A DNA stretch of 64,000 nucleotides, taken from NCBI GenBank assembly GCA_034521955.1, contig JAXHLT010000003.1, positions 153,778-217,777 of the forward strand, read 5' to 3'. Below, piece after piece: positions 1 through 63,851 of the stretch. The notes below the pieces were generated by a model. That model saw only the letters and a list, made by a program, of their open reading frames with translations. It made no database searches and was not told the DNA's origin. The translations under genes and the position numbers were made by a program. This stretch comes from Halanaerobiales bacterium. Lineage in GTDB: Bacteria > Bacillota > Halanaerobiia > Halanaerobiales > M55B127. How positions within the stretch are numbered: position 1 is the stretch's first letter; each line of letters begins with the position of its first letter.

Positions 1-152
1 GAGTCATTTATTTGATAGTCTAATTCATCTATTGCTTTTTTTACACGAATAGAAGTATCTTTACTTACCAATGAACTGTCATTTATAACACGGGAAACAG
101 TTGATAAGGAAACACCTGCTTTTTTTGCAACATCTTTCATTGTTATTGCCAT
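1..152 (-). CDS. LacI-family transcriptional regulator, N-terminal HTH part only (gene continues beyond the left edge)
   Basis: Reverse translation from the ATG (complement of 150-152) reads [50 protein letters not shown], a canonical LacI/GalR HTH. A GGAG Shine-Dalgarno lies at complement of 160-163. Confidence 0.85.
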
Positions 153-170
153 AATAATTCTCCTTTAAGA

Positions 171-197
171 TGAAAACGATTTCTGAAAACCATTTCA
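171..197. promoter_or_regulatory. Two tandem LacI/CcpA-type operator-like elements (TGAAAACGATTTC, TGAAAACCATTTCA)
   Basis: Read directly. 170-184 ATGAAAACGATTTCT fits the cre-type pattern WTGNAANCGNWNNCW. The second copy is a partial palindrome. Both lie just upstream of the LacI-family start codon. Confidence 0.3.
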
Positions 198-805
198 TTG
201 TATTTATTTTATTCAATATTAATCATTTATCCTGCTATAATTTTAATTTTACAATTTTATGACATTGTTCTATGAATCTTTAATTTTAGTATATTATTGA
301 GAATAATTTTAACTATAAAAACATATTATCCTTACACTGTGAAAGCATATGATGTAGTTTTGAAAACTTTAATTTATATTATTAATGCAAAATATCGAAT
401 TATTTTTATGACATATAGGAAAATCCATTAGATAATACTGTATTACATTCCAAAATATATAGTACTTATTTCTTTTATTCATTAGAATATCTGCTAAACA
501 AACACTATCATAATGCAATGAATAGCAGTATCTTATCGATTATTGCACTCTGATTTTAAAACTTTTGGAAACTCATTTAATCAATTACACTAACTGTTTA
601 AATAAGGTTTTCTATATTTTCTTTAAATTAGAAGTCACTTATAAATTAATAATAACAATTGTTTTTATAAAACCTTTCTAAAATCTCTCAATAATATTTC
701 AAATTTATTATTACATTGGGAATTTTGTTTATTTTAAGATAATTTTACACTAATTAAAGGTATAAAATATAAATAACAATATTTTATGATGAGTGGAGTG
801 ATATA

Positions 806-2484
806 ATGAAAAATCAGAGATGGTGGAAAGAGGCAGTTGTATATTAGATTATCCAGAAGTTTTATGATAGTAATAATGATGGAATAGGAGATATTAATGG
901 AATAATTAAAAAACTGGATTATATCAAAGATTTAGGTGTAGATGTAATCTGGTTATGCCCGATCTATAAGTCTCCAAATGCTGATAATGGTTATGATATA
1001 TCGGATTACAAAAAAGTAATGGATGAGTTTGGGAAAATAGAAGATGTGGAAAAGTTAATTAAAGAAGTTCATAATCAAGATATGAAGATAATACTTGATT
1101 TAGTTGTTAACCATACTTCTGATGAACATAGATGGTTTAAAAACTCAAAACAATCAACTGATAGTGCTTATAGAAATTATTATATCTGGAAAGATGGTAA
1201 TGGAGATTTGCCTCCTAATAATTGGGGCTCAATATTTGGTGGTTCTGCTTGGAAATATGATCAAAAAACAGATCAATACTATTTACATTTATTTGATGTA
1301 AAACAACCTGATTTAAATTGGGAAAAACCTAAAGTGCGGAATAAAATATATGAAAATATGAGATGGTGGTTAGATAAAGGAATTGATGGTTTTAGAATGG
1401 ATGTAATTAATATGCTTTCTAAAGACCAAAGCTTTCCAGATGGTAAGGTTATGGATAATGAAAGATATGGAGATGGAAGTCAATATTATCTAAATGGACC
1501 AAAATTATATGACTATTTATCTGAAATGGGAGAAGAGGTTCTATTTGATTATGATATAATGACTGTAGGTGAAACTCCAGGATTTGGTGTTGATAATGCA
1601 ATAAAGTTTTCAAAACATGAGGGAAAAGATTTATTAAATATGGTATTTCATTTTGAACACATGTCAGTAGATAGAGATGATAAAAACAAATGGGTAAATA
1701 AAGAAATTGATTTAAAATTATTAAAAGATATATATGAAAAATGGAATAAAAGTCTTTATGAAAAAGGATGGAATGCTATATATCTAGGTAATCATGATCA
1801 ACCTAGAATTGTATCAAGATTTGGTAGTGATAAACAATATAGGAAAGAATCCGCAAAAATGTTGGCAACATTGCTTCTAACAATGCCAGGTACTCCTTAT
1901 TTATATCAGGGAGATGAAATAGGAATGACGAATGTGAAATTCGATGACATAGGAAAGTATAGAGATGTTGAGACAATCAATCATTATAGAGCAGAAACTA
2001 AAAGTAGACCTAAAGACAAGGTTATGCAGGAAATTTATAGAACGAGCAGGGATAATGCTAGAACACCTATGCAGTGGAATAAAAATATAAATGCAGGGTT
2101 TACACAAAGTACTCCCTGGATTAATTTAAACCCAAATTATAAAGAAATTAATGTGGAAAGTTCCTTAAAAGAAAGTGATTCAATCTTAAAATATTATAAA
2201 AGGATAATTAAAACAAGAAAAAATAATAAAGGTTTAATATATGGGAAATATGATACTGTTTTGTATGAAAATGAGTCAGTTTTTGCTTATATTAGAACTT
2301 ATGAAAAGCAAAAATATTTAATATTATTAAATTTCTTTGAAAATACTTTGCAAATCAAATTACCTGATAATATAAAACTTGAATGAATATAATTTAATAA
2401 TTTCTAACTATAAAAATAATAAATATAGATAATAATATTATTACTTTAAAACCATATGAAAGTTTAGTTTTCAAGTTAAGCTAA
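806..2484 (+). pseudogene. Oligo-1,6-glucosidase / alpha-glucosidase (GH13), disrupted at both ends
   Basis: SD GGAG at 795-798 and ATG at 806 give MKNQRWWKEAVVY, then an in-frame TAG (845-847), then IIQKFYDSNNDGIGDING... The expected YQIYPRSF strand is one residue short and garbled. The body (ORF 1019-2386) carries GH13 motifs DLVVNHTSDEH, GFRMDVIN and NHDQPR. After the TGA at 2384-2386 the conserved C-terminus continues in two further +1 frames: NLNEYNLIISNYKNNKYR, then IDNNIITLKPYESLVFKLS with a stop at 2482-2484. Confidence 0.85.
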
Positions 2485-3276
2485 ACTTAATAATGATCTA
2501 TCATTATAAAAACCTTGTTTATTTTTTTTCTGGAATATTTCTAATAAATGATTTATTGTCATATTGTTTTTGGTTTTTCCATCAATATCAATAATTATTT
2601 TACCATGGTTCATCATTAACATGCGATTTCCAAATTTTAAAGCATCCTTCATATTGTGAGTGATCATTAAAGTAGTAATATTATTATTTGATACAATTTT
2701 TTGAGTAAGGTCATTAATTTTAATTGCAGTAGCAGGATCTAATGCAGCTGTATGTTCATCTAATAGCAATAGATCAGGTTCTATAATTGTTGCCATAAGT
2801 AATGTTAATGCTTGTCTTTGACCACCAGATAAAAGTTTTACTTTTGTATTAAGTCGTTTTTCTAAACCAAGATTAATTTCTTCAAGATGTTCTTTAATAA
2901 TAGTTCTTTTTTTCTTATTCATAGCCCATTTAAGAGATAGTTTTGAACTTTTATTTAAAGCCATTGATAAGTTTTCCTCTATAGTCATATCAGGGGAAGT
3001 TCCCATAAGTGGGTCTTGAAAAACTCTGCCGATAAAGTTTGCTCTTTTATACTCAGGCATTTCTGTAATATTTTTTTCTGATAATATAATTTGACCGGCT
3101 GATAATTTAAAAACACCAGCTATACTATTTAATAAGGTAGATTTACCTGCCCCATTTCCACCAATTATTGTTATAAAATCACTATTTTTAACTTCTAATG
3201 TAATATCTTTTAAAGCCTTAGCTTCATTACATGTGTTTTCATTAAATGTCTTTGTAACATTAGTTAGTTTTAGCAT
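2476..3276 (-). CDS. ABC transporter ATP-binding protein
   Basis: Walker A GGNGAGKST, signature LSGGQRQ and Walker B LLLLDE. Overlaps the upstream permease gene by 17 nt. Confidence 0.9.
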   Translation of the reverse strand: MLKLTNVTKTFNENTCNEAKALKDITLEVKNSDFITIIGGNGAGKSTLLNSIAGVFKLSAGQIILSEKNITEMPEYKRANFIGRVFQDPLMGTSPDMTIEENLSMALNKSSKLSLKWAMNKKKRTIIKEHLEEINLGLEKRLNTKVKLLSGGQRQALTLLMATIIEPDLLLLDEHTAALDPATAIKINDLTQKIVSNNNITTLMITHNMKDALKFGNRMLMMNHGKIIIDIDGKTKNNMTINHLLEIFQKKNKQGFYNDRSLLSLA

Positions 3277-4138
3277 TTAATTTACCTCCAATCTTCTTTT
3301 TAATATTAGGTGCTGATAAAAATACAATTACAATTAAAGCTGTTAAAAGCTTTAAATCTGAAGCTGCAAAACCACTCATAAGTGCAAAAGATATGCTGCC
3401 TCTATAAAGTATTGAACCTATTATGATACTCGGAATAGTGTAGTAGAGCTTATCATTGCTAAAGATGACTTCTCCAATAATAACTGATGCTAAACCAGCA
3501 ATTATAGTACCAATTCCCATACTAATATCAGCAAAACCTTGATACTGTCCTATCAAAGCACCTGCCAAGGCAACAAAGCTGTTGGCAATAATTAATCCCA
3601 TAAATTTCATGTTATCTGTATTGATAGCCATACTTCTAACCATAGCAGGATTATCCCCTGTTGCTCTTAATGCATATCCAAGTTTTGTTTTCATAAATAA
3701 TATTAAAGTAATTAATACTAAAATAACAACAATTAATATTAATAATAATTCATTATAATCAGTAAAGTTAAAAATATCAAAAATTGTCCTACTTGAAATT
3801 AAAGGGATGTTTGGTCTACCCATAATCCTTAAATTTATAGAATATAATGCTGTCATTGTAAGTATACCAGAAAGTAATGGAGCTATTTTAAGTCTGGTAT
3901 TTAAAAAACCTGTTATTGAACCAGATATTCCACCAGCAAAAGTAGCTACAAGCAATGTCAAAAATGGATTATATCCTATTATTATCATTTTAGATGAGAC
4001 AGCAGCACCTAAAGTGATGCTGCCATCTACAGTTAAATCTGCAAAATCTAAAATTCTAAATGTTATATAAACTCCAATGGCCATAATACCATAGATTAAT
4101 CCTTGTTCAATTGATGTTATAAGAAACCATAAGTCCAT
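3260..4138 (-). CDS. ABC transporter permease
   Basis: 292-aa polytopic hydrophobic ORF lying between the SBP and ATPase genes. Confidence 0.85.
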   Translation of the reverse strand: MDLWFLITSIEQGLIYGIMAIGVYITFRILDFADLTVDGSITLGAAVSSKMIIIGYNPFLTLLVATFAGGISGSITGFLNTRLKIAPLLSGILTMTALYSINLRIMGRPNIPLISSRTIFDIFNFTDYNELLLILIVVILVLITLILFMKTKLGYALRATGDNPAMVRSMAINTDNMKFMGLIIANSFVALAGALIGQYQGFADISMGIGTIIAGLASVIIGEVIFSNDKLYYTIPSIIIGSILYRGSISFALMSGFAASDLKLLTALIVIVFLSAPNIKKKIGGKLNAKTN

Positions 4139-4165
4139 ACAATAACCTCCAGTACCTAACTTAAA

Positions 4166-5155
4166 TTATTCAATTAATATATCGATTTTATCCACTAATG
4201 ATTCTGGTATTTCTAGATTGAAATTTTCAACAGCTTTTTTATTTACAATAAGTTGTAGATTTTGAGAACCAATTATTGGTATATCAGATGCTTTTTCTCC
4301 ATTTAATACTCGTGCTGCAATTTGACCAGTTTCTTTACCTAAAGTAAAATAATCAATTCCCTTAGTAGCAATTGCACCATTTTCAACTTGTCCTTTTTCT
4401 GCTGCAAAAACTGGAGTATTATTTTCCATAGCTATTTTTATTATAGAAGGAACTGCAGAAGCGATTGTATTGTCTGTAGGTAGGTATATAGCATCAACTT
4501 TATTTACAATAGTAGAAGTTGCTAAAGCTATTTCACTTGTGTTGGTTACAGTACCTTCAACAATTTCTAAATCCATTTCAGATGCAGCCTCTTTAGCTAT
4601 ATCTACTTGAACTACTGAATTAACTTCACCACTGTTATATAAAATACCAATAGTTTTAGCATCAGGTACAAACTGTTTAATTAAAGATAATTGATCTGCA
4701 ACCGGATTCATATCTGTAGTTCCAGTTACATTTTCTTCTTTATTTACTAAATCAGAAACTAAACCTGCTTCTACAGGATCAGTAACTGCAGTTATTAAAA
4801 GAGGAGTATCTGTTAATACACCAGCTGCTGCTTGAGCACTTTTAGTAGTTATTGCTAATACTAAATCCAGTTTTTGTCCTTTAAATTTTTGAGCGATTGA
4901 CTGTGAGGTTGCAAAATCACCTTGGGCATTTTCAAGATTAATTTCAAGGTTTTCACCTTCAATAAAACCTGCTTCATTTAATCCTTCAATAAACCCATCA
5001 CGAGCAGCATCCAATGCGGGATGTTCTACAAGTTGAGATATTCCTACTTTGAATAATTTTCCTTCTGTTTGAGCTGAAATTTGAAAAGTAAAGAATAATA
5101 CAAATGAAATGAGAATAGACATTACCAATAGAGATTTCTTACCATTAATTACCAT
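4166..5155 (-). CDS. ABC transporter substrate-binding protein (ABC_sub_bind / PF04392-like uncharacterised family)
   Basis: Has a signal peptide. Family-typical blocks are VGISQLVEHPALDAARDGF, DLVLAITT, AVTDPVEAGLV, NVTGTTD and YLPTDNTIASA. SD AAGGAGAG lies upstream of the ATG. Confidence 0.85.
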   Translation of the reverse strand: MVINGKKSLLVMSILISFVLFFTFQISAQTEGKLFKVGISQLVEHPALDAARDGFIEGLNEAGFIEGENLEINLENAQGDFATSQSIAQKFKGQKLDLVLAITTKSAQAAAGVLTDTPLLITAVTDPVEAGLVSDLVNKEENVTGTTDMNPVADQLSLIKQFVPDAKTIGILYNSGEVNSVVQVDIAKEAASEMDLEIVEGTVTNTSEIALATSTIVNKVDAIYLPTDNTIASAVPSIIKIAMENNTPVFAAEKGQVENGAIATKGIDYFTLGKETGQIAARVLNGEKASDIPIIGSQNLQLIVNKKAVENFNLEIPESLVDKIDILIE

Positions 5156-5203
5156 TTTACATCTCTCCTTATTTTAGTTTTTTGGTTTGGATTTTTTGGA
5201 AAG

Positions 5204-5236
5204 AGAAATAAAAAAACACTCCTGGGAAGGAGTGTT
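5204..5236 (-). terminator. Intrinsic terminator inside the ABC-operon leader, downstream of the HutP-family gene
   Basis: Minus-strand RNA reads AACACUCC-UUCCCA-GGAGUGUU followed by U7AUUU. It lies about 48 nt before the SBP start codon. Confidence 0.8.
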
Positions 5237-5241
5237 TAAAG

Positions 5242-5300
5242 ACATAGAAATACATAGAAATTTCCTAAGTATTTTCTCCTACCATATTACCATATTACCA
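5242..5300 (-). repeat. Two short tandem-repeat blocks in the leader RNA
   Basis: Minus strand: UGGUAAUA-UGGUAAUA-UGGUAG (complement of 5300-5279) and AUUUCUAUGU x2 exact (complement of 5261-5242). Confidence 0.6.
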
Positions 5301-5316
5301 ATTATTAATTTTTTTA

Positions 5317-5345
5317 ATTATACACAGTAAATAAACTAATGTCAA
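5317..5345 (-). promoter_or_regulatory. SigA-type promoter for the ABC operon leader
   Basis: Minus strand TTGACA (5345-5340), 17-nt spacer, TATAAT (5322-5317). It starts about 10 nt after the HutP-family stop codon. Confidence 0.7.
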
Positions 5346-5355
5346 GTATTTTATG

Positions 5356-5766
5356 TTAATTTATTGTACGATGACTTAAACCAACTGCTACTTCATTGAG
5401 ATTTAACATCCCAACACCAAAAAATATTGCGACTACTAAATGATCTTCTTTTCGAGCAATACCAATTTTACCACCAATGTTTAAACCTACTGCACTTCCC
5501 ATGATCTGTTTTAAAGCTTCATGAGTAGCACCTGCAACTGCACCTTGATTTGAGTGTGATTCATTAATCAAATTTTCTCGTCTTGCAGCTATTACTGCAT
5601 TTTCTATTATTTTTTTAACAGACTTGTTGTATTCACCACCAAAATCAACTGCTGCAGTCTTGATACCTTGAGAATCGCGATAATCTTTTTTTAATTGTTT
5701 TTCCTCGGAACGGTCTGAAATAGCTAATCTTAATGCTGCTTTTGCAATAATAAGGCTTTTTTCCAT
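5356..5766 (-). CDS. HutP-family (RNA-binding antiterminator-like) protein
   Basis: 136 aa. My recalled comparison with B. subtilis HutP shows similar size, ESH...A..EAL in the middle and a G.G....H.I-type C-terminus (GVGMLNLNEVAVGLSHRTIN). SD GGAGG lies upstream. Not verified by an HMM search. Confidence 0.6.
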   Translation of the reverse strand: MEKSLIIAKAALRLAISDRSEEKQLKKDYRDSQGIKTAAVDFGGEYNKSVKKIIENAVIAARRENLINESHSNQGAVAGATHEALKQIMGSAVGLNIGGKIGIARKEDHLVVAIFFGVGMLNLNEVAVGLSHRTIN

Positions 5767-5797
5767 TTATGTAAGCCTCCTAATTCTATTTTATTTA

Positions 5798-5826
5798 ATT
5801 ATAATTTATTTTAAAATATATGTCAA
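5798..5826 (-). promoter_or_regulatory. SigA-type promoter for the HutP-family gene
   Basis: Minus strand TTGACA (5826-5821), 17-nt spacer, TATAAT (5803-5798). Confidence 0.65.
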
Positions 5827-5846
5827 TTGTTACCATCTATAATTAC

Positions 5847-5875
5847 TTGAAAATAGCCGGTTATTCTGATATATT
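5847..5875 (+). promoter_or_regulatory. Divergent SigA-type promoter for the flavoprotein gene
   Basis: TTGAAA (5847-5852), 17-nt spacer, TATATT (5870-5875). Confidence 0.5.
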
Positions 5876-5911
5876 TTATCTAAGAAAAGAGATAAAATAG
5901 GAGGAAAATTA

Positions 5912-6477
5912 ATGATCACAGTAATTTCAGCCAGTCATAGAAAATCTGGCAATACAGATAAAATGTTAGATATATTTATTGATGAGATTTCAAAAACAAA
6001 TGATTTAGAGAAAATCAAATTAATCAATTATGATTTAAATATATGTGAGGCTTGTTTAGACTGTCATCAAGATGGTTTATGTATTTTAGAAGATGATATT
6101 AATGATCTATATAAAAGAGTTGAAAAAGCAGAAGGAATGATAATTTCTTCACCAATATATTTTGCTTCTATAACTTCTGTTTTAAAGATATTTATTGATA
6201 GGGCAGAACCTTATCGAGCTAAGAATATATTACAAAATGATGTAAATAAAATAAATAATTATAAAAAAGGATATTTTTTAGGTGTTGGTGCTTACAAAAC
6301 TGATTTGTTTTATAATAATGCTAAAGAAATAATAAAAAATTATTTTCATTCTTTAAATACAAAATATACTGGAGAATTATTTTTTAAAGGTGTTGAAAAA
6401 AAGGTGAAATAGAAAGTGTTGAATTCTATGAGGAAAAAATAAGTCAGGCTGCTCGTAATTATTTAAAACAATTATAA
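5912..6477 (+). pseudogene. Iron-sulfur flavoprotein (Isf / NADPH-dependent FMN reductase fold), frame broken near the 3' end
   Basis: Flavodoxin-like N-terminus SHRKSGNT and a compact Cys motif CEACLDCHQDGLC (C-x2-C-x2-C-x5-C). The ORF stops at 6410-6412, but the family-like C-terminus GEIESVEFYEEKISQAARNYLKQL continues in the -1 frame to the TAA at 6475-6477. The break sits in an A7 run (6396-6402); one extra A restores the frame. Confidence 0.75.
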
Positions 6478-6491
6478 GGAGGCGTTTTTTT

Positions 6492-6984
6492 ATGGCAAAC
6501 AAGGAACTTGAGGTTATTAAAGAAGCAATTTTAAATGAAAATGAAGGTTATCAAGTTTACATGATGGCAGCAGAGAAAATTGATAAAGAAGAAATAAGTG
6601 AATCCTTTAAAAAGCTGGCAAAAGAAGAACTTAAGCATATTGATTGGTTAAAAGAACTTTATCAAGATATGGAAGGAAAAGAAAAGATTAACATTTACAG
6701 TTGATGAAATAAAACCTCCTGAAAAACCCAGAATTTTCAAATGGGAGAAGATTGAAAAAGAAAACTTATCTTTTGCTTTATCAGTATTTGGTTTAGGTGT
6801 AAAAATGGAAAAAGATGCAATTGAATATTATAAAAATGCTGTAAGTAATACTGAATCTCAAGAAGCAATGAAATTATATAAAAAAATAATTGAATGGGAG
6901 TATCAGCATTTGAATTTCTTCCAAGAACAGTATGATATGTTAAAAGAAGACTGGTGGGCAGAGCAAAGCTTTGAACCGTTTTAA
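6492..6984 (+). pseudogene. Rubrerythrin/ferritin-like domain protein, frame broken once
   Basis: The N-terminal half is ORF 6492-6704. The second half (VDEIKPPEKPRIFKWEK...AIEYYKNAVSNTESQEAMKLYKKIIEWEYQHLNFF...) reads in the +1 frame to the TAA at 6982-6984. The shift lies within 6652-6704, probably in the GAAAAG region. Confidence 0.7.
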
Positions 6985-6988
6985 TAAC

Positions 6989-7013
6989 AAAACCCTGCAA
7001 AAAGCAGGGTTTT
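6989..7013. terminator. Bidirectional intrinsic terminator between convergent genes
   Basis: AAAACCCTGC-AAAAA-GCAGGGTTTT, a perfect 10-bp stem with A/T runs on both sides. Confidence 0.75.
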
Positions 7014-7016
7014 AAG

Positions 7017-7529
7017 CTATTTTGTACTTTCTTTATGTTCTGAAGCTAACTTAATATAGTGTTCAGCGTTTTCAGTGATAGAATTTATTTCATCATCAGA
7101 GAGCTTTCTCACTACTTTAGCTGGTGAACCCATGATTAAACTTTTGGGAGGAAATTCGGAGTTTTCTGTAACTAAACTTCCTGCAGCAACTATTGAGTTT
7201 GCTTTAATTAATGCATCATTTAATAGAATTGCTCCCATTCCAATAAGACAGTTATCTTCAACTTTACAACCATGAATAGTTGCATTATGACCGACTGTAA
7301 CATTTTTTCCAATTATTAAAGGCTGATCGGAATCAACATGTAAAGCTGAATTATCTTGAATATTTGTCCCTTCACCTAAGATTATTTTATTAAGATCTGC
7401 TCTTAATGAAGTATTATACCAAATGCTTGTTTTTCCTTTTAATTCAACATCTCCTACAACTTGTGCACCTGGTGCAATAAATGAGCTATCTGATATTTTT
7501 GGTTTTTTGTTTTTATACTTATGAATCAT
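7017..7529 (-). CDS. Gamma-carbonic-anhydrase-like hexapeptide-repeat protein (YrdA/PaaY family)
   Basis: Left-handed beta-helix repeats and the motif pattern IWYNTSLRAD...GEGTNIQDNSALH...GHNATIHGC. Confidence 0.85.
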   Translation of the reverse strand: MIHKYKNKKPKISDSSFIAPGAQVVGDVELKGKTSIWYNTSLRADLNKIILGEGTNIQDNSALHVDSDQPLIIGKNVTVGHNATIHGCKVEDNCLIGMGAILLNDALIKANSIVAAGSLVTENSEFPPKSLIMGSPAKVVRKLSDDEINSITENAEHYIKLASEHKESTK

Positions 7530-7659
7530 TATATTTACCCCCTTTATATTTTTATTTTATTCAACACAAAAGATTTTAATCCTTCTTATTAGATTTATTA
7601 TACTTGAATATAAGGGATTTATTTATTATAATTAAATAAGTATGATGGAAGGTGAGATA

Positions 7660-8253
7660 ATGAAATTTGCAATTATTGGTGGAACATTTAATCCTGTACA
7701 TATTGGTCATTTGATTATTGCTGAAAGAGCCTATCTGGAATTTAATCTAGATAAGGTTATTTTTATGCCTGCAGGAAATCCACCTCATAAAAACAATGAA
7801 AATGTAATTGATAAAACTCACAGGATAAATATGTTAAAAACCGTTATTGAAGATAATGAACATTTTGATTTATCTTTATGGGAAATAAATAGTAATGGAA
7901 AGTCTTATACAGTTAAAACAATTGATCATTTTAAAGATAAATATGATATCAATAAAGTTAATTTAATTATTGGTACTGATTCTTTAGCTCAGATATTTAA
8001 CTGGTATAAACCTCATTATGTATTATCCAATTCAAATCTATATATTGCTAAAAGAAGTGGATATTCTTATTCTGAAACAATGAAAGATCAGCGCCTTAGA
8101 GAGTATCAAGACAGCATTAATTTATTGGATAATTCTTTAATAGATATTTCTTCAACAATGATAAGAGAATATGTAAGAGATAAAAAATCGGTTCGTTATC
8201 TTACTCCTGATAAGATAATTGGATATATTAAAGAAAATAATTTATATGGGTGA
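7660..8253 (+). CDS. nadD: Nicotinate-nucleotide adenylyltransferase
   Basis: MKFAIIGGTFNPVHIGH motif. SD GGAAGGTGAG precedes the ATG at 7660. The track ORF begins at 7642, but that start has no SD. Confidence 0.9.
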   Translation: MKFAIIGGTFNPVHIGHLIIAERAYLEFNLDKVIFMPAGNPPHKNNENVIDKTHRINMLKTVIEDNEHFDLSLWEINSNGKSYTVKTIDHFKDKYDINKVNLIIGTDSLAQIFNWYKPHYVLSNSNLYIAKRSGYSYSETMKDQRLREYQDSINLLDNSLIDISSTMIREYVRDKKSVRYLTPDKIIGYIKENNLYG

Positions 8254-8825
8254 AATTAATGATTGATATCAAAAGTTTAAAAACTAAATTAAAAGAAATT
8301 GATGGTTTTAGATATGAACACAGCTGTTTTGTTAAAGATACTGCAGTTAAGTTAGCAAAAAAATATAAAGCAGATACTTATAAAGTTAAATTAGCTGCTT
8401 TATTACATGATTATGCCCGTAATTATTCAAATGAAAAATTAATTGATATAGTTAATAAAAATAATATTGAGGTAGATGAATGGGAACGTGAGATTCCTGA
8501 ATTATTACATTCACCAGTAGCAGCATTTATTGCTGATGATGAATTTGGTATTAAAGATAATGAAATAATAGATGCAATAAGATATCATACAATCGGCAGA
8601 CCAAAAATGAGTAAGATTGAAAAAATTATTTTTCTAGCAGATATTATTGAACCAAGCCGTGATTTTCCTGATATAAATTATATTAGAGAAGCTGCTGATA
8701 ATAATTTAGATAAAGCTGTACTTTTAGTTTGCGATTTTACTATAAAATATAATATTGAGCAAAACAAAATAATTCATCCTAATACATTGTTAGCTAGAAA
8801 TGAACTCTTGAAGGGAGAAAACTAG
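8250..8825 (+). CDS. yqeK: HD-domain bis(5'-nucleosyl)-tetraphosphatase YqeK
   Basis: HD motif LLHDYAR and conserved position after nadD. GTG start overlaps the nadD stop. Confidence 0.85.
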   Translation: MKLMIDIKSLKTKLKEIDGFRYEHSCFVKDTAVKLAKKYKADTYKVKLAALLHDYARNYSNEKLIDIVNKNNIEVDEWEREIPELLHSPVAAFIADDEFGIKDNEIIDAIRYHTIGRPKMSKIEKIIFLADIIEPSRDFPDINYIREAADNNLDKAVLLVCDFTIKYNIEQNKIIHPNTLLARNELLKGEN

Positions 8826-9989
8826 ATGTTTAAAAAGGTTAACTGGAAAATAACTGGACTTATAATAGTTTTATTAATAATTGTTTTATCTTTTTCTATA
8901 TATTTAAACGATGATTTTAGTTTATTAGATATAAATCCTTTTCGTGAATCAAAGCTAAATATATTAGTTGCTGGTTATGATTCAAATATAAACGGTCCAC
9001 CTAGGGCAGATACAATTATAGTAGCTAGTGTTGATTTGAGTTCTAATCAAATTGGACTATTATTTATTCCTAGAGATACAAGAGTAAAAATAAATGGCAG
9101 GGGATATGACAGGATTAATGCTTCCCATGCTTATGGTGGAATTGAATTACTAGATGAAACTGTGGAAAACTTTATTGATGTAAAAATAGATTATTATTTG
9201 GAAACAGATTTCAATGGATTTGCAGATATTATTGATCTTCTAGGTGGACTTGATATACATATAGATAAACCATTACATTATGTAGATAAGGCAGGGGGAT
9301 TATATATTGATCTTCCAGCTGGTGATGTTCATTTAAATGGTGAAAAGGCACTTCAATATGTGAGATATCGAGGTAAACTAGGAGATATAGGAAGAGTTTC
9401 AAGGCAGCAGAAGTTTGTTGAAGCCTTAATGGATAAAGCAATATCTTCTCAAACATTATTTAATTCACCATCAATATATAAAGAAGTAATGAATTCCGTA
9501 AATACAAATATACCACTAAAAGATGTAACACCATTTTTAAAGTTGGCAAACAAACTTGATTTAAGTAAGGTAAAAACAGAAATGGTACCGGGAAAACCAG
9601 AATATATAAATAATGCTAGTTACTGGATAGCAGATGAAGATGCATTAGATATAATGGTAGATAATTTAATCAGAAGTAAAGAATATATCCAAAATGATAA
9701 ATATTATATTACTATTTTAAATGGTAATGGTGTATCTGGAGTTGCTACTAAAACTGCAGATGAACTAAAAAAATATGGATTTAATATAAATGATATATCT
9801 AATGCCGATAGGTATGATTATGAAGATACCATTATTTATTATAAAGAAGATGAAAAAGTAGCAAATGGAATTCAGGAAATTCTAGGTGGAGTAGTAGAAA
9901 ATTCAGAAGAAATTGAAGCCGATTTTCAGATTATATTAGGAGAAAAGTTTTTAGATAATTCATTAGTGAAAAAGGAGGAACTTAATTAA
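8826..9989 (+). CDS. LytR-CpsA-Psr (LCP) family cell-envelope protein
   Basis: N-terminal TM segment, then LCP blocks RADTIIVASVD, LFIPRDT and NASHAYGG, with a LytR_C-like C-terminus. Confidence 0.85.
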   Translation: MFKKVNWKITGLIIVLLIIVLSFSIYLNDDFSLLDINPFRESKLNILVAGYDSNINGPPRADTIIVASVDLSSNQIGLLFIPRDTRVKINGRGYDRINASHAYGGIELLDETVENFIDVKIDYYLETDFNGFADIIDLLGGLDIHIDKPLHYVDKAGGLYIDLPAGDVHLNGEKALQYVRYRGKLGDIGRVSRQQKFVEALMDKAISSQTLFNSPSIYKEVMNSVNTNIPLKDVTPFLKLANKLDLSKVKTEMVPGKPEYINNASYWIADEDALDIMVDNLIRSKEYIQNDKYYITILNGNGVSGVATKTADELKKYGFNINDISNADRYDYEDTIIYYKEDEKVANGIQEILGGVVENSEEIEADFQIILGEKFLDNSLVKKEELN

Positions 9990-10351
9990 TGTCAAAAGAT
10001 AATTTCAAAAAAATTGCTGAACTTGCAGCTGAAGCTGCAGATGATAAAAAGGCATTTGATATAGAGATATTAAATGTTGAAGGATTAACTATAATAGCAG
10101 ATTACTTTGTTATTTGTTCAGGTAATACAGATAAACAAGTACAGGCTATTGCAAGAGCAGTCGAAGAAAAATTAGACGAGGAAGGTATTTATCCTAAACA
10201 GATTGCAGGAAAAGATGAAGGTAGATGGATACTGATGGACTATGCTGATGTAATTGTACATGTTTTTCATAAACATGAAAGACAATACTATGAACTTGAT
10301 AGATTATGGGCTGATGCTGAAAAGATATTGAAAAAAGAAGAAACTTCTTGA
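9989..10351 (+). CDS. rsfS: Ribosome silencing factor RsfS (iojap)
   Basis: ADYFVICSGNTDKQVQAIA and WILMDYADVIVHVF motifs. Confidence 0.9.
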   Translation: MSKDNFKKIAELAAEAADDKKAFDIEILNVEGLTIIADYFVICSGNTDKQVQAIARAVEEKLDEEGIYPKQIAGKDEGRWILMDYADVIVHVFHKHERQYYELDRLWADAEKILKKEETS

Positions 10352-10394
10352 CTTTAAGCCTATAAATTATTATAATTTTTTATATAGATAAATA

Positions 10395-10627
10395 TTGATA
10401 ATAAGGGCAATGAAAGAAAGTAGTAATAGTATTGTATTTTAAGAGAGCTGCTGGTTGGTGAAAAGCGGTAATATAATATTATGAACTCGTTCTGGAGCCT
10501 ATACTGTTGAAATTTAAGTAGATGGTATCGTAAAAATGCGTTAAGTTTTTTAAGTGGATAACTACTATCTATTAGGGTGGTACCACGGGTAATCAACTCG
10601 TCCCTTGCTTGGGGATGGGTTTTTTTA
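10395..10627 (+). promoter_or_regulatory. T-box riboswitch leader of leuS (candidate specifier CUC, Leu) with terminator
   Basis: AGAGAG / GGUUGGUGAAAAGC stem-I elements. Candidate specifier GAA-CUC-G at 10486-10488. T-box AUUAGGGUGGUACCACGG at 10571-10588. Terminator ACUCGUCCC-UUGCUUG-GGGAUGGGU plus U7 at 10595-10627. Confidence 0.85.
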
Positions 10628-10667
10628 TTTTATAATATATTATTAGTTAATCAAGGGGGAATTATAA

Positions 10668-13165
10668 GTGAAAGATTATTATAATTTTAAAGAAATTGAG
10701 AAAAAGTGGCAAAAAAAATGGGATGATGAAAGTCTTTACAAAACAAAAAATAAAGATAAAAAAGATAATTATTATGTATTAGAAATGTTTCCTTATCCTT
10801 CTGGCAAGTTACATATGGGCCATGTAAGAGTATATTCAATTGGTGATGTCATTGCTCGTTTTAAAAGAATGAAGGGACTAAATGTGCTTCATCCAATGGG
10901 TTGGGATGCATTTGGACTTCCTGCTGAAAATGCAGCAATTAAGCATGGTAATATCCATCCAAGAGAATGGACCTGGGATAATATTGCAAGTATGAAAGAA
11001 CAGATGAAATCTTTAGGACTAAGTTATGACTGGGATCGAGAAGTTGCAACTGCTGATCCTGATTATTATAAGTGGACACAATGGTTTTTTGTAAAAATGT
11101 TTGAAAATGATTTGGCATATAAAAAAGAACAGGCTGTGAACTGGTGTCCAAGTTGTGATACTGTATTGGCTAATGAACAGGTTGTAAATGATCGTTGTGA
11201 GCGTTGTGATACTTTAGTTGAACAAAAAGAATTAGAACAGTGGTTTTTAAAAATTACAGATTATGCTGATGAACTTCTAGAAGGTCATGATAAATTAGAC
11301 TGGCCGGAAAGAGTTAAAACAATGCAGAAAAACTGGATTGGTAAAAGTGAAGGAATGAGAATAAAGTTTCCAATTGAAGAGATAAAAAAAGAACTTGAAG
11401 TTTTTACCACAAGGCCAGATACAATTTATGGTGCAACATATATGGTATTAGCACCTGAACATCCATATGTTGATGAATTAATTGAAGGTAAAGATAATGA
11501 AAAAGAAATTAGAGAATTCATAAAAGACGTTAAAGCACAAAAAGAAATGGAAAGAACTTCAGCCTGAATCAGAAAAAGAAGGTATTTTTACTGGTAGTTA
11601 TGCTACAAATCCAATGACAGGTGAAAAGATACCTATTTTAATAGCAAATTATGTATTGATGGGTTATGGAACTGGAGCTATAATGGCTGTACCTGCTCAT
11701 GATCAAAGAGACTTTGATTTTGCAAAAAAATATGATCTTCCAATTACAGCAGTAATTCAACCTGATGAAAAGGAAGAAAAACTAGATGGATCTAAAATGG
11801 AAGAAGCATATAGTGAGGATGGCTATTTAATAAACTCTGAAAAATATAATGATCTAAGTGTTAAGGATGCTTTTGATGCTGTTGCTGATGATATGGAAGA
11901 AAAAAATATTGGTAATAGGGAAGAAAATTATAGATTAAGAGATTGGTTAATTTCAAGACAAAGGTACTGGGGAACTCCAATACCAATTGTTTATTGTGAT
12001 GAATGTGGAGCAGTACCAGTTCCTGAAGAAGAATTACCAGTTGTATTACCAGATGATGTAGAATTTTCACATACTGGAGTTTCTCCTCTAGCAAAGTCTG
12101 AAGAATTTGTTAATACCACTTGTCCTAAATGTGGTGGAGATGCTAAAAGAGAAATAGATACTATGGATACTTTTGTTGATTCATCCTGGTATTTTTTAAG
12201 ATATATTGATCCTAATAATAAAATGGCACCTGTTGGTAAAGAGAAAGCTAATGATTGGTTTCCAGTAGATCAATATATTGGTGGTATTGAACATGCCATA
12301 CTTCACTTATTATATGCTAGATTTTTTACAAAAGTAATAAGAGACCTAGATTTAATTGATGATGGTGAACCATTTACTAAATGGTTAGCACAGGGTATGG
12401 TCTTAAAAGATGGAGATAAAATGTCTAAGTCAAAGGGCAATGTTGTAGACCCTAGTAAAATACTTGATGAATACGGTGCTGATACAGCAAGATTATTTAT
12501 CCTTTTTGCTTCACCACCTGAAAAAGACTTAGAGTGGAGTGATAAAGGAGTTGAAGGAGCCAACAGGTTCTTAAATAGGGTTTGGAGATTTGTCTCTGAA
12601 CACATTGAGCTCATTAAAGATATTGATGTAGAAAAAATTAACATTGATCAAAATAATCTAACTGATCAGGAAAAAGAACTTCATAGAAAGTTACATGAAA
12701 CTATTCAAAAGGTTACTGAAGATATTGAAGAAAGACTGAACTTTAATACAGCTATAAGTGCTATAATGGAACTTGTAAATGAAATATATCATTATGTAGG
12801 TAATAATGATGAAATAAATGAAGAACTTATTAACACTTGTTTCTGAAAAATTAGTACTAATGCTTGCACCTTTTGCTCCTCATATGAGTGAAGAACTATG
12901 GAATAAAATGGGACATAATGATACAGTCAATCGAGCAAAATGGCCTGAATTTAGTAAAGAGGCTATCAAAAAAGATGAAGTAACAATAGTTATTCAAATT
13001 AATGGTAAGGTTAGAGACAAAGTTGATGTAGATGCTGATATATCAAAAGATAAACTTAAAGAAAAAGTTTTTAATCAAGATAAGGTAAAAAAATATACAG
13101 AAGGTAAAGAAATTATAAAAACTATTGTTATACCTAAAAAATTAGTAAATGTTGTTGTAAAGTAA
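10668..13165 (+). pseudogene. leuS: Leucine--tRNA ligase, reading frame interrupted twice as given (probably a sequence artefact, not a dead gene)
   Basis: Three collinear pieces: 10668-11567, then to 12846, then to 13165. HIGH motif [11 protein letters not shown] and KMSKS motif KMSKSKGN are present. Break 1 is at GCC-TGA (11562-11567), where the next frame is +1 and reads [23 protein letters not shown]. Break 2 is within 12818-12846, again +1, reading LVLMLAPFAPHMSEELW. GTG start with SD AAGGGGGA. Confidence 0.9.
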
Positions 13166-63416: not shown

Positions 63417-63750
63417 AGAGCAGCACAGATAATCGCGGTAGATCAACATCTACTGAGGAAAGTCCGGGCTTTATAGGGCAGGATGCTGGGTAATACCCAG
63501 TGGAGGTGACTCCCAGGAAAGTGCCACAGAAAATACACCGCCAATTTGGTAAGGGTGAAAAGGTGAGGTAAGAGCTCACCAATATTCAGGTGACTGAATA
63601 GTTTGGTAAACCCCATCCGAAGTAAGTCCAAATAGGGAGATTATAGAGTGGCCCGCTTTTTCTCCGGGTTGGACGCATGAGGTAGCAAGTAATTGTTATC
63701 CTAGATAGATGACTATCTGATACAGAACCCGGCTTATAGTGCTGCTCTTT
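63417..63750 (+). ncRNA. rnpB: RNase P RNA, bacterial type A
   Basis: P1 pairing AGAGCAGCAC / GTGCTGCTCT. Universal blocks GAGGAAAGTCCGGGC, AGTGCCACAGAAAA, GGTAAGGGTGAAAAGGTGAGGTAAGAGCTCACC and ACAGAACCCGGCTTA. Collinear with my recollection of the E. coli (type A) M1 RNA, not the Bacillus type B. Confidence 0.92.
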
Positions 63751-63851
63751 TTTAATGCAAACATATGTTTATATTTTTAACTTAACAAATTGAAAATGAA
63801 GTCAAATTATGTTAAAATAGAGAGCAGAACGAAGATTTAGGAGGTAAATTA

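Follow-up and report, generated by a model that had tools for sequence, protein, structure and literature searches.

HutP of Bacillus subtilis (PDB entries 1WMQ, 1WPV and 3BOY) has so far been treated as a single-purpose antiterminator of histidine utilisation in the Bacillaceae, and a 2025 review mentions Bacillus orthologues only. Its gene adjoins the hutH/U/I/G genes that it controls, and its RNA target consists of NAG triplets separated by 4-nt spacers (a 7-nt period) and arranged in two sites, of which site II lies within the terminator. TRAP (MtrB), a different regulator, is an amino-acid-loaded ring: the phased leader repeats to which it binds overlap an antiterminator, so that binding favours termination, and other TRAP sites overlap the ribosome-binding site or start codon of biosynthetic and transport genes within an aromatic amino-acid regulon. 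PyrR is an RNA-binding protein that is encoded in or next to its own operon and promotes termination when loaded with the end product. Here, a HutP-like gene, the leader that follows it and an ATP-binding cassette (ABC) importer operon from a Halanaerobiales bacterium (contig JAXHLT010000003.1; the window, i.e. the whole stretch of DNA analysed, is 64 kb long) are compared with these systems. The comparison shows that most of the Pfam HutP family represents a different regulator, which differs from HutP in RNA motif and ligand pocket and has an aromatic supply regulon; its regulatory sign is probably opposite to that of HutP. For the locus itself, TRAP-like repression by an aromatic-loaded protein of this HutP branch, tied to aromatic supply and not to histidine use, is on balance the favoured explanation.

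All sequence elements listed in a first-pass annotation of this DNA were recovered in place on the minus strand. The locus, in coordinates of the window, comprises the following features, including a gene for a substrate-binding protein (SBP):

5826-5798, minus strand: promoter P1, TTGACA-17-TATAAT, a 12/12 match to the consensus, preceding the HutP-like gene
5766-5356, minus strand: HutP-family gene of 136 aa, non-canonical subfamily (Pfam PF09021)
5345-5317, minus strand: promoter P2, TTGACA-17-TATAAT, 10 nt past the HutP-like stop codon; predicted driver of the leader and the ABC operon
5301-5278, minus strand: three phased 8-nt units, UUGGUAAU AUGGUAAU AUGGUAGG, then AG; proposed protein-binding site
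5283-5276, minus strand: GGUAGGAG, the core of the third unit with GGAG; a candidate for the 5' antiterminator strand
5261-5242, minus strand: two copies of AUUUCUAUGU within a variable spacer hairpin, read from the sequence
5237-5204 (hairpin 5237-5214), minus strand: intrinsic terminator AAACACUCC-UUCC-CAGGAGUGUUU plus U run; terminator scan match
5208-5182, minus strand: post-terminator segment UUUCUCUUUCC..UCC..ACCAA, with complementarity to both the repeat block and the ribosome-binding site
5168-5140, minus strand: ribosome-binding site GGAGAG and start codon (at 5155), read from the sequence
5155-5148 and 5145-5138, minus strand: two further AUGGUAA units, read from the sequence; a weak cluster, below the 12-bit threshold
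5155-4166, minus strand: SBP, PF04392 (Pfam E 2.9e-83), predicted to be tyrosine-specific
4138-3260, minus strand: ABC permease, BPD_transp_2 (PF02653, E 2.4e-31), syntenic in all related loci
3276-2476, minus strand: ABC ATPase (PF00005, E 3.4e-26), syntenic in related loci

The SBP-permease-ATPase operon thus spans 5155-2476, with the SBP start codon ~48 nt past the terminator U run. Promoter P2, described as perfect at first pass, scored 12/12, and promoter-like matches of lower score were shown to be common in this AT-rich window (34 versus 28 expected). Between P1 and the HutP-like open reading frame (ORF) there are no repeat units.

The first-pass assignment of the 136-aa ORF to the HutP family was borne out, and the protein also has the HutP fold. 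The Pfam HutP model PF09021 gave a full-length match (E 3.5e-45; 153.8 bits; residues 7-133 aligned to model positions 1-128), with a score higher than that of B. subtilis HutP itself (111 bits). An AlphaFold monomer model built from 28 homologues reached a pLDDT of 91.2, and the top 11 Foldseek matches of this model in the PDB were all HutP structures (TM 0.67-0.78, identity 16-22%), the best of them reaching TM 0.72-0.78 at 17-22% identity. Searches of the PDB by sequence (phmmer) and by family profile did not detect HutP, so that the fold search alone linked the two. Both proteins are small (~140 aa), and the hexameric state of HutP is probably, by analogy, also that of the 136-aa protein.

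Compared with B. subtilis HutP, to which it is at most 22% identical, the protein differs in the predicted ligand site. Profile-profile comparison (hhalign) with 18 canonical HutPs was weak (probability 16%, E 0.0016), and in this alignment the canonical invariant His73 and His77 fall on Gly75 and Gly79, which are invariant in the subfamily, a placement consistent with a predicted helix at residues 71-86 of the model. His73 and His77 are reportedly, from 2005 work by Kumarevel, the Mg2+/L-histidine ligands of HutP. His132, in a C-terminal GL(S/E)H motif that lies outside the hhalign output and was matched by our own reading, may be the counterpart of His138. Two of the three histidines of the canonical L-histidine/Mg2+ site (His73, His77 and His138) are replaced, and because this site is unconserved the effector is, as judged from sequence, not histidine. 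At 90% identity the subfamily comprises at least 2,656 clusters, which collapse into 213 at 50% identity; canonical HutP, by comparison, has 768 clusters, nearly all of them from Bacillaceae. The closest protein matches, together with one SBP that is 100% identical, were derived from metagenome-assembled genomes (MAGs) of Halanaerobiales.

In the leader RNA, the three UGGUA units with 8-nt period that had been reported at first pass were found and shown to be conserved in 15 related loci. The reported difference from the Bacillus motif holds as well, the target here being GGUA(G/A) with an 8-nt period and not NAG with a 7-nt period, and a UA(G/A) core is still contained in each unit. The B. 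subtilis HutP target is likewise single-stranded RNA with three short units at fixed spacing, each including UA(G/A). The pattern GGTA-N4-GGTA-N4-GGTA, with at most one mismatch, occurs once in the 64 kb, versus 0.09 occurrences expected. A position matrix was built from 43 units (consensus A-U/C-G-G-U-A-G/A-N) and scored as three phased units; the leader site reached 28 bits, and no other site in the window attained 12 bits. When the 80 related loci described below (850 kb) were scanned on both strands, 40 sites of at least 16 bits were obtained, 38 of which are sense-oriented and immediately precede hutP-like, PF04392 SBP, aroH or DAHP synthase genes. Many of these sites stem from outside the training set (L010, with two sites, L022, L028, L060, L043, L034, L049, L051 and L046).

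Rfam 15 covariance models, searched in positions 1-12000 with E values up to 1, gave no match to the leader, the only match being an unrelated T-box at 10401-10608, and the orthologous leaders L201-L204 likewise had no Rfam match (no T-box, no riboswitch). A metagenome scan with GGTAGNATGGTAGNATGGTA returned 120 matches, of which four adjoin hutP-like, DAHP synthase or SBP genes; these four are sense-oriented, lie 137-187 nt ahead of the genes and have a terminator behind them. The other 116, mostly perfect tandem arrays, showed no similarity to the ten family-linked proteins tested. Six GC-rich metagenome contigs (L084, L125, L134, L149, L159 and L178) share a recurrent element, CTTTATTTTGGTAG(C/T)ATGGTAG(C/T)ATGGTA, and had no tblastn match to any of these ten proteins. 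The GGUA repeat block is conserved as a cis element and is almost certainly bound by a protein.

Conservation was assessed across 80 genome loci encoding relatives of the protein at 56-99% identity. At 15 of these, the hutP-like gene is directly followed by the genes for SBP, permease and ATPase, and all 15 come from Halanaerobiales or from MAGs of unclassified Bacillota; at L022 the ABC genes are in divergent orientation, and at L010 a PF04392 SBP gene is located 5 kb away. The order of regulator gene, terminator and ABC operon noted at first pass is real and conserved in related loci. All 15 ABC-type leaders contain a consensus promoter, three GGUA units with an 8-nt period (in a Halanaerobium example CUGGUAGC AUGGUAAU ACGGUAGG AG), GGAG (replaced by GGGG in two leaders), a variable hairpin and a terminator, the latter being represented Halanaerobiales-wide as AACACUCC..GGAGUGUU in 14 of the 15. 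A search starting from the SBP yielded four orthologues outside the Halanaerobiales: three, from Fervidicola, Tepidanaerobacter and Thermovorax, have a PF09021 gene immediately upstream and the same leader, while the fourth, from Caldicoprobacter, has the units and an anti-ribosome-binding-site segment but neither a terminator nor an adjacent hutP-like gene. Units, GGAG and terminator are kept at 55-67% protein identity and across orders, and, because they and the second promoter are conserved in the 15 related loci, they do not represent chance occurrences. Comparison with the related loci bore out the units and the terminator but not the AUUUCUAUGU repeats: the two exact copies described at first pass are present at 5261-5242, but conservation among close relatives is partial, the duplication being kept in the closest ones alone, and other hairpins take its place in Halanaerobium. 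As a second protein site, the duplicated AUUUCUAUGU was rejected on this ground.

Members of the family are also associated with a second type of target. At 40 of the 80 loci, a gene for an AroH-type chorismate mutase lies directly downstream of the hutP-like gene (protein ~60% identical), in Desulfosporosinus, Desulfitobacterium, Formimonas, Syntrophomonas, Neomoorella, Ruminiclostridium, heliobacteria and others, and aroH is often followed by genes for DAHP synthase, prephenate dehydrogenase (TyrA), TrpE/G, HisC or AroA. The regulon is composed of supply genes, i.e. for aromatic biosynthesis and uptake. No hut genes were seen near the gene in the window, whose neighbours are an FMN reductase gene and the ABC importer, or in the 80 related loci. 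At the aro-type loci, similar phased units and then a terminator occur upstream of the hutP-like gene itself, which implies autoregulation; these genes sit behind their own leader, as pyrR does. PyrR has a different fold, however, and binds a structured hairpin (an anti-antiterminator) and not phased single-stranded units. Outside the Halanaerobiales (L012-L080), a strongly conserved gene order was observed, consisting of an HI0933-like flavoprotein gene, a gene for a ~170-aa protein without a Pfam match, the hutP-like gene and aroH, continuing with cmk, plsC and either ispH-rpsA or the aro genes.

The importer points to the same metabolism. Its SBP, confirmed as a PF04392 member, gave 6HNI as best PDB match (E 3.6e-85), followed by 3LKV (1.5e-66) and 3LFT (1.2e-53), which are C. 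difficile CD0873 (tyrosine), VC_1101 (phenylalanine) and SP1069/TrpX (tryptophan), respectively (PMC6816091). The tyrosine preference of CD0873 is set by Glu263 and Tyr279 (PMC6816091), and the SBP of the window has Glu (VFAAEKG) and Tyr (GIDY) at these positions, as do 14 of 14 HutP-linked SBPs that span them, at identities down to 44%. The best NCBIfam match was the TrpX equivalog NF041285 (304.5 bits, under the cutoff of 390). Because the solved relatives bind aromatic amino acids and both tyrosine-specificity residues are present, the substrate class is assigned as aromatic amino acids, with tyrosine as the predicted substrate. The first-pass annotation had regarded PF04392 as lacking a firmly assigned substrate class, which does not fit with three solved relatives that all carry an aromatic amino acid. 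It had also left both effector and substrate blank; a substrate class can now be assigned, and the effector is narrowed, by inference only, to the aromatic amino acids, among which tyrosine is the likeliest, since the SBPs are of the tyrosine type and AroH and TyrA are among the targets. The SBP is thus a close homologue of CD0873 and belongs to a like SBP-permease-ATPase operon type, the differences being that its ligand is predicted from sequence and that control by a HutP-like protein is undescribed for CD0873 in the literature found.

The intrinsic terminator reported at first pass, which was matched by the terminator scan, has a G+C-rich stem of 10 bp with a predicted stability of -11 to -12 kcal/mol and, unlike the HutP system, no GGUA unit inside it. 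The reported complementarity of the end of the first repeat block to the terminator 5' arm and loop was likewise found, seven of eight positions pairing between GGUAGGAG (5283-5276) and CUCCUUCC (5232-5225). Minimum-free-energy folds of transcripts cut before the terminator 3' arm showed a unit paired with the 5' arm and loop, the pairing strand in the window being the third unit plus GGAG. In L202, GGUAGGAG and CUCUUACC pair at eight of eight positions, and the terminator loops of relatives (UUCC, UUACC, UACC and ACC) tend to complement GGUA. The third-unit pairing with the terminator arm therefore represents a candidate antiterminator.

A second pairing involves the segment behind the terminator. 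In the window, the duplex between the repeat block and the post-terminator segment has a predicted stability of -17.5 kcal/mol (z -3.0, p 0.003 versus shuffles); a complementarity with z ~-3 was seen in 9 of the 15 leaders, with a duplex of -25.3 kcal/mol in L202. The segment is lineage-specific (UUUUCUCCCCAUAU in L004, ACCUACC in L009, CUACCAGUUA in Halanaerobium and UUCUCCCCCAU..CUUACCGU in Fervidicola), and complementarity to the local ribosome-binding site is present in the segment or right next to it. When the units were forced unpaired in silico, the accessibility of the ribosome-binding site fell in 10 of 14 leaders and rose in none, with a decrease from 0.36 to 0.11 in the window.

Units were also found on translation starts. 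At L010, a second three-unit site, AAGGAGAG AUGGUAGG AUGGUAGG, spans the SBP ribosome-binding site and start codon without a terminator, L022 being similar, and at L070, L051, L049 and L046 units span the ribosome-binding site and start codon of aroH. In four SBP lineages (the window, L009, L010 and L022) the ORF starts AUGGUA, which places the start codon inside a unit. Two three-unit sites (3+3) with a linker, as in L010, echo the two-site layout of B. subtilis HutP and are compatible with the two RNA-binding faces of a hexamer. As a separate observation, the GAGAGAU that immediately precedes the start codon is able to pair with SBP codons 8-10, which contain AUCUCU (5166-5161 with 5147-5132, minus strand), forming a loop that contains the start codon and two GGUA units; this pairing is kept in L001-L008.

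Taken as a mechanism, the favoured TRAP-like repression would operate as follows. The 136-aa protein, probably as a hexamer loaded with an aromatic amino acid (likeliest L-tyrosine), would bind the three phased units in the P2 leader. In free RNA, the third unit plus GGAG would pair with the terminator 5' arm and loop, forming the antiterminator, and in free read-through RNA the repeat block would pair with the post-terminator segment, leaving the ribosome-binding site open. Protein binding would abolish both pairings, allowing the terminator to form, after which the freed segment and the start-codon units would mask the ribosome-binding site. The tyrosine importer would consequently be off when tyrosine is plentiful, which amounts to TRAP logic on a HutP-type protein. 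The sign of regulation is probably negative, i.e. opposite to that proposed at first pass.

The likeness to TRAP concerns this proposed logic, as deduced from sequence comparison. TRAP (MtrB, PF02081) membership was rejected on family and fold: the only Pfam match of the protein is HutP, its fold matches HutP, and TRAP, whose subunit is a beta-sandwich, belongs to an unrelated fold and family. The site consists of 3 (+3) GGUA units with an 8-nt period, compared with 9-11 (G/U)AG triplets with 2-3 nt spacers for TRAP, the likely effector is tyrosine and not tryptophan, and the antiterminator is much weaker.

Several observations weigh against the TRAP-like explanation. The alternative pairing put forward at first pass does appear in truncated transcripts, as described above, but it is weak relative to shuffled sequences: the antiterminator helix is short (7-8 bp, ~-5 kcal/mol versus -11 kcal/mol for the terminator), and comparison with dinucleotide shuffles gave a mean z of -0.59 (p ~0.02, with non-independent samples). 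The duplex between post-terminator segment and ribosome-binding site, at -9.8 kcal/mol, is no better than shuffles, and the window has only two start-codon units, which are spaced by 10 nt and do not reach the scan threshold. Binding of the units by the 136-aa protein is suggested by their co-location and by analogy with HutP, and the argument from the ligand site depends on a low-confidence alignment to canonical HutP (16% probability). The effector could instead be phenylalanine, tryptophan or a pathway intermediate, and the ligand could relieve rather than trigger RNA binding. Finally, regulator gene, terminator and structural genes follow one another as in the hut operon, in which HutP activates.

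This last point is shared with the strongest rival, HutP-type antitermination, in which an amino-acid-loaded protein would bind the GGUA units and block the terminator, so that the importer is induced by its substrate, for example for catabolism. This was the ligand-gated switch proposed by the first-pass annotation, and we consider it unlikely, albeit clearly the best of the alternatives. Besides the gene order, it draws on the HutP family and fold, on the regulator having its own consensus promoter without a leader, which would permit constitutive synthesis like that of HutP, and on the three units per site, a number that agrees with the three-fold manner in which each face of a HutP hexamer binds RNA. 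However, whereas site II of HutP lies within its terminator, no units are present in the terminator here, and the single RNA element that could oppose the terminator, the candidate antiterminator strand, includes the third unit, so that binding would favour termination. Furthermore, related sites are located on ribosome-binding sites and start codons, where binding can only repress, and blocking the units in silico reduces ribosome-binding-site accessibility. The other targets of the family are biosynthetic (aroH, DAHP synthase and tyrA); end-product repression is the norm for biosynthesis and uptake genes, and end-product induction of such genes would be senseless. It is because of the units on ribosome-binding sites and start codons, the truncated folds, the pairing of repeats with the post-terminator segment, the supply-gene regulon and the absence of units from the terminator that TRAP-like repression is favoured over antitermination.

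Far less probable is a switch based on RNA only, on a leader peptide or on another factor, with the HutP-like protein not being the binder. A leader ORF with tyrosine and phenylalanine codons does lie just before the terminator, the extensive alternative pairings need no protein, and phased GGTAG-N-AT arrays occurred in many unrelated contexts in the metagenome scan. Yet L004, L005 and L007 have lost the peptide frame, which is also absent from Halanaerobium and Fervidicola, whereas the units are invariant, and the ORF extends through the terminator, unlike in classical attenuation. The lack of an Rfam family, T-box or riboswitch match also argues against such a switch, as does the conservation of phasing and GGUA cores rather than of pairing partners, units being present in terminator-less leaders with different partners as well. 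In addition, the sites are sense-oriented and go along with hutP-like genes or with members of their regulon. The leader ORF (5252-5166, minus strand) starts at the first AUG of the AUUUCUAUGU repeat, encodes the Tyr/Phe-rich MYFYVFKHSFPGVFFYFSFQKIQTKKLK and is probably a by-product of U-rich sequence, only the closest relatives keeping it. Leader-peptide attenuation through this ORF (MYFYVFKHSF...) was rejected on the lost frame and the run through the terminator, and attenuation through tiny MVIW ORFs inside the units was rejected because UGG becomes CGG in Halanaerobium.

That there is no switch at all, the hairpin merely ending hutP-like transcripts or acting as a constitutive attenuator and the repeats being functionless, is barely credible: the whole-leader fold does exceed shuffles in stability by no more than a small margin (z -1.65), but a consensus promoter separates the HutP-like gene from the terminator, the elements persist across orders at the protein identities given above, and the unit pattern is expected far less than once per window by chance.

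Elsewhere in the window, all on the plus strand, several genes were found to be interrupted or shortened. A frameshift near 6695-6705 divides a ferritin-like/rubrerythrin-type gene (6492-6984) into two ORFs (70 and 59 aa), whereas the L001 homologue is intact (163 aa). The T-box leader (140 bits) precedes leuS, with the two together spanning 10401-12846, and leuS is split into ORFs at 10668-11567 and 11614-12846; leuS is thus the second broken gene, which suggests assembly errors or gene decay. A GH13 alpha-glucosidase ORF (1019-2386, 455 aa) lacks ~105 N-terminal residues of its L001 homologue, and no ORF of at least 40 aa was found upstream of it in 518-1019. An RNase P RNA of class A (63417-63752, 312 bits) and a tRNA gene (56284-56357) were also detected.

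A literature search returned nothing on HutP relatives outside hut operons or on relatives tied to chorismate or tyrosine metabolism, which is no proof of absence, and part of this search was poorly constrained. Compared with B. subtilis HutP, whose regulator gene likewise lies upstream of the terminator preceding the regulated genes, the locus described here is associated with an aromatic importer and aro targets and not with hut genes, and its regulator probably represses rather than activates. More broadly, and more tentatively than for the locus itself, it is proposed that a large HutP-fold branch is the tyrosine/aromatic counterpart of TRAP in Clostridia, Halanaerobiales and their relatives. 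As part of the same tentative proposal, a ligand-loaded ring on phased AUGGUAG units would repress the genes for chorismate mutase, DAHP synthase, TyrA and the tyrosine importers, attenuating their transcription and masking their ribosome-binding sites. If this is true, TRAP logic would have been reinvented by convergence on a scaffold for which only activation has been known; this would provide a second independent protein scaffold for TRAP-like attenuation, useful for studying the evolution of such switches, as well as a compact amino-acid-responsive RNA-binding part. It would also assign a function to thousands of genes labelled 'HutP family protein', provide a substrate prediction for the linked PF04392 importers and explain how the common aromatic pathway and tyrosine uptake are controlled in many anaerobic Firmicutes.

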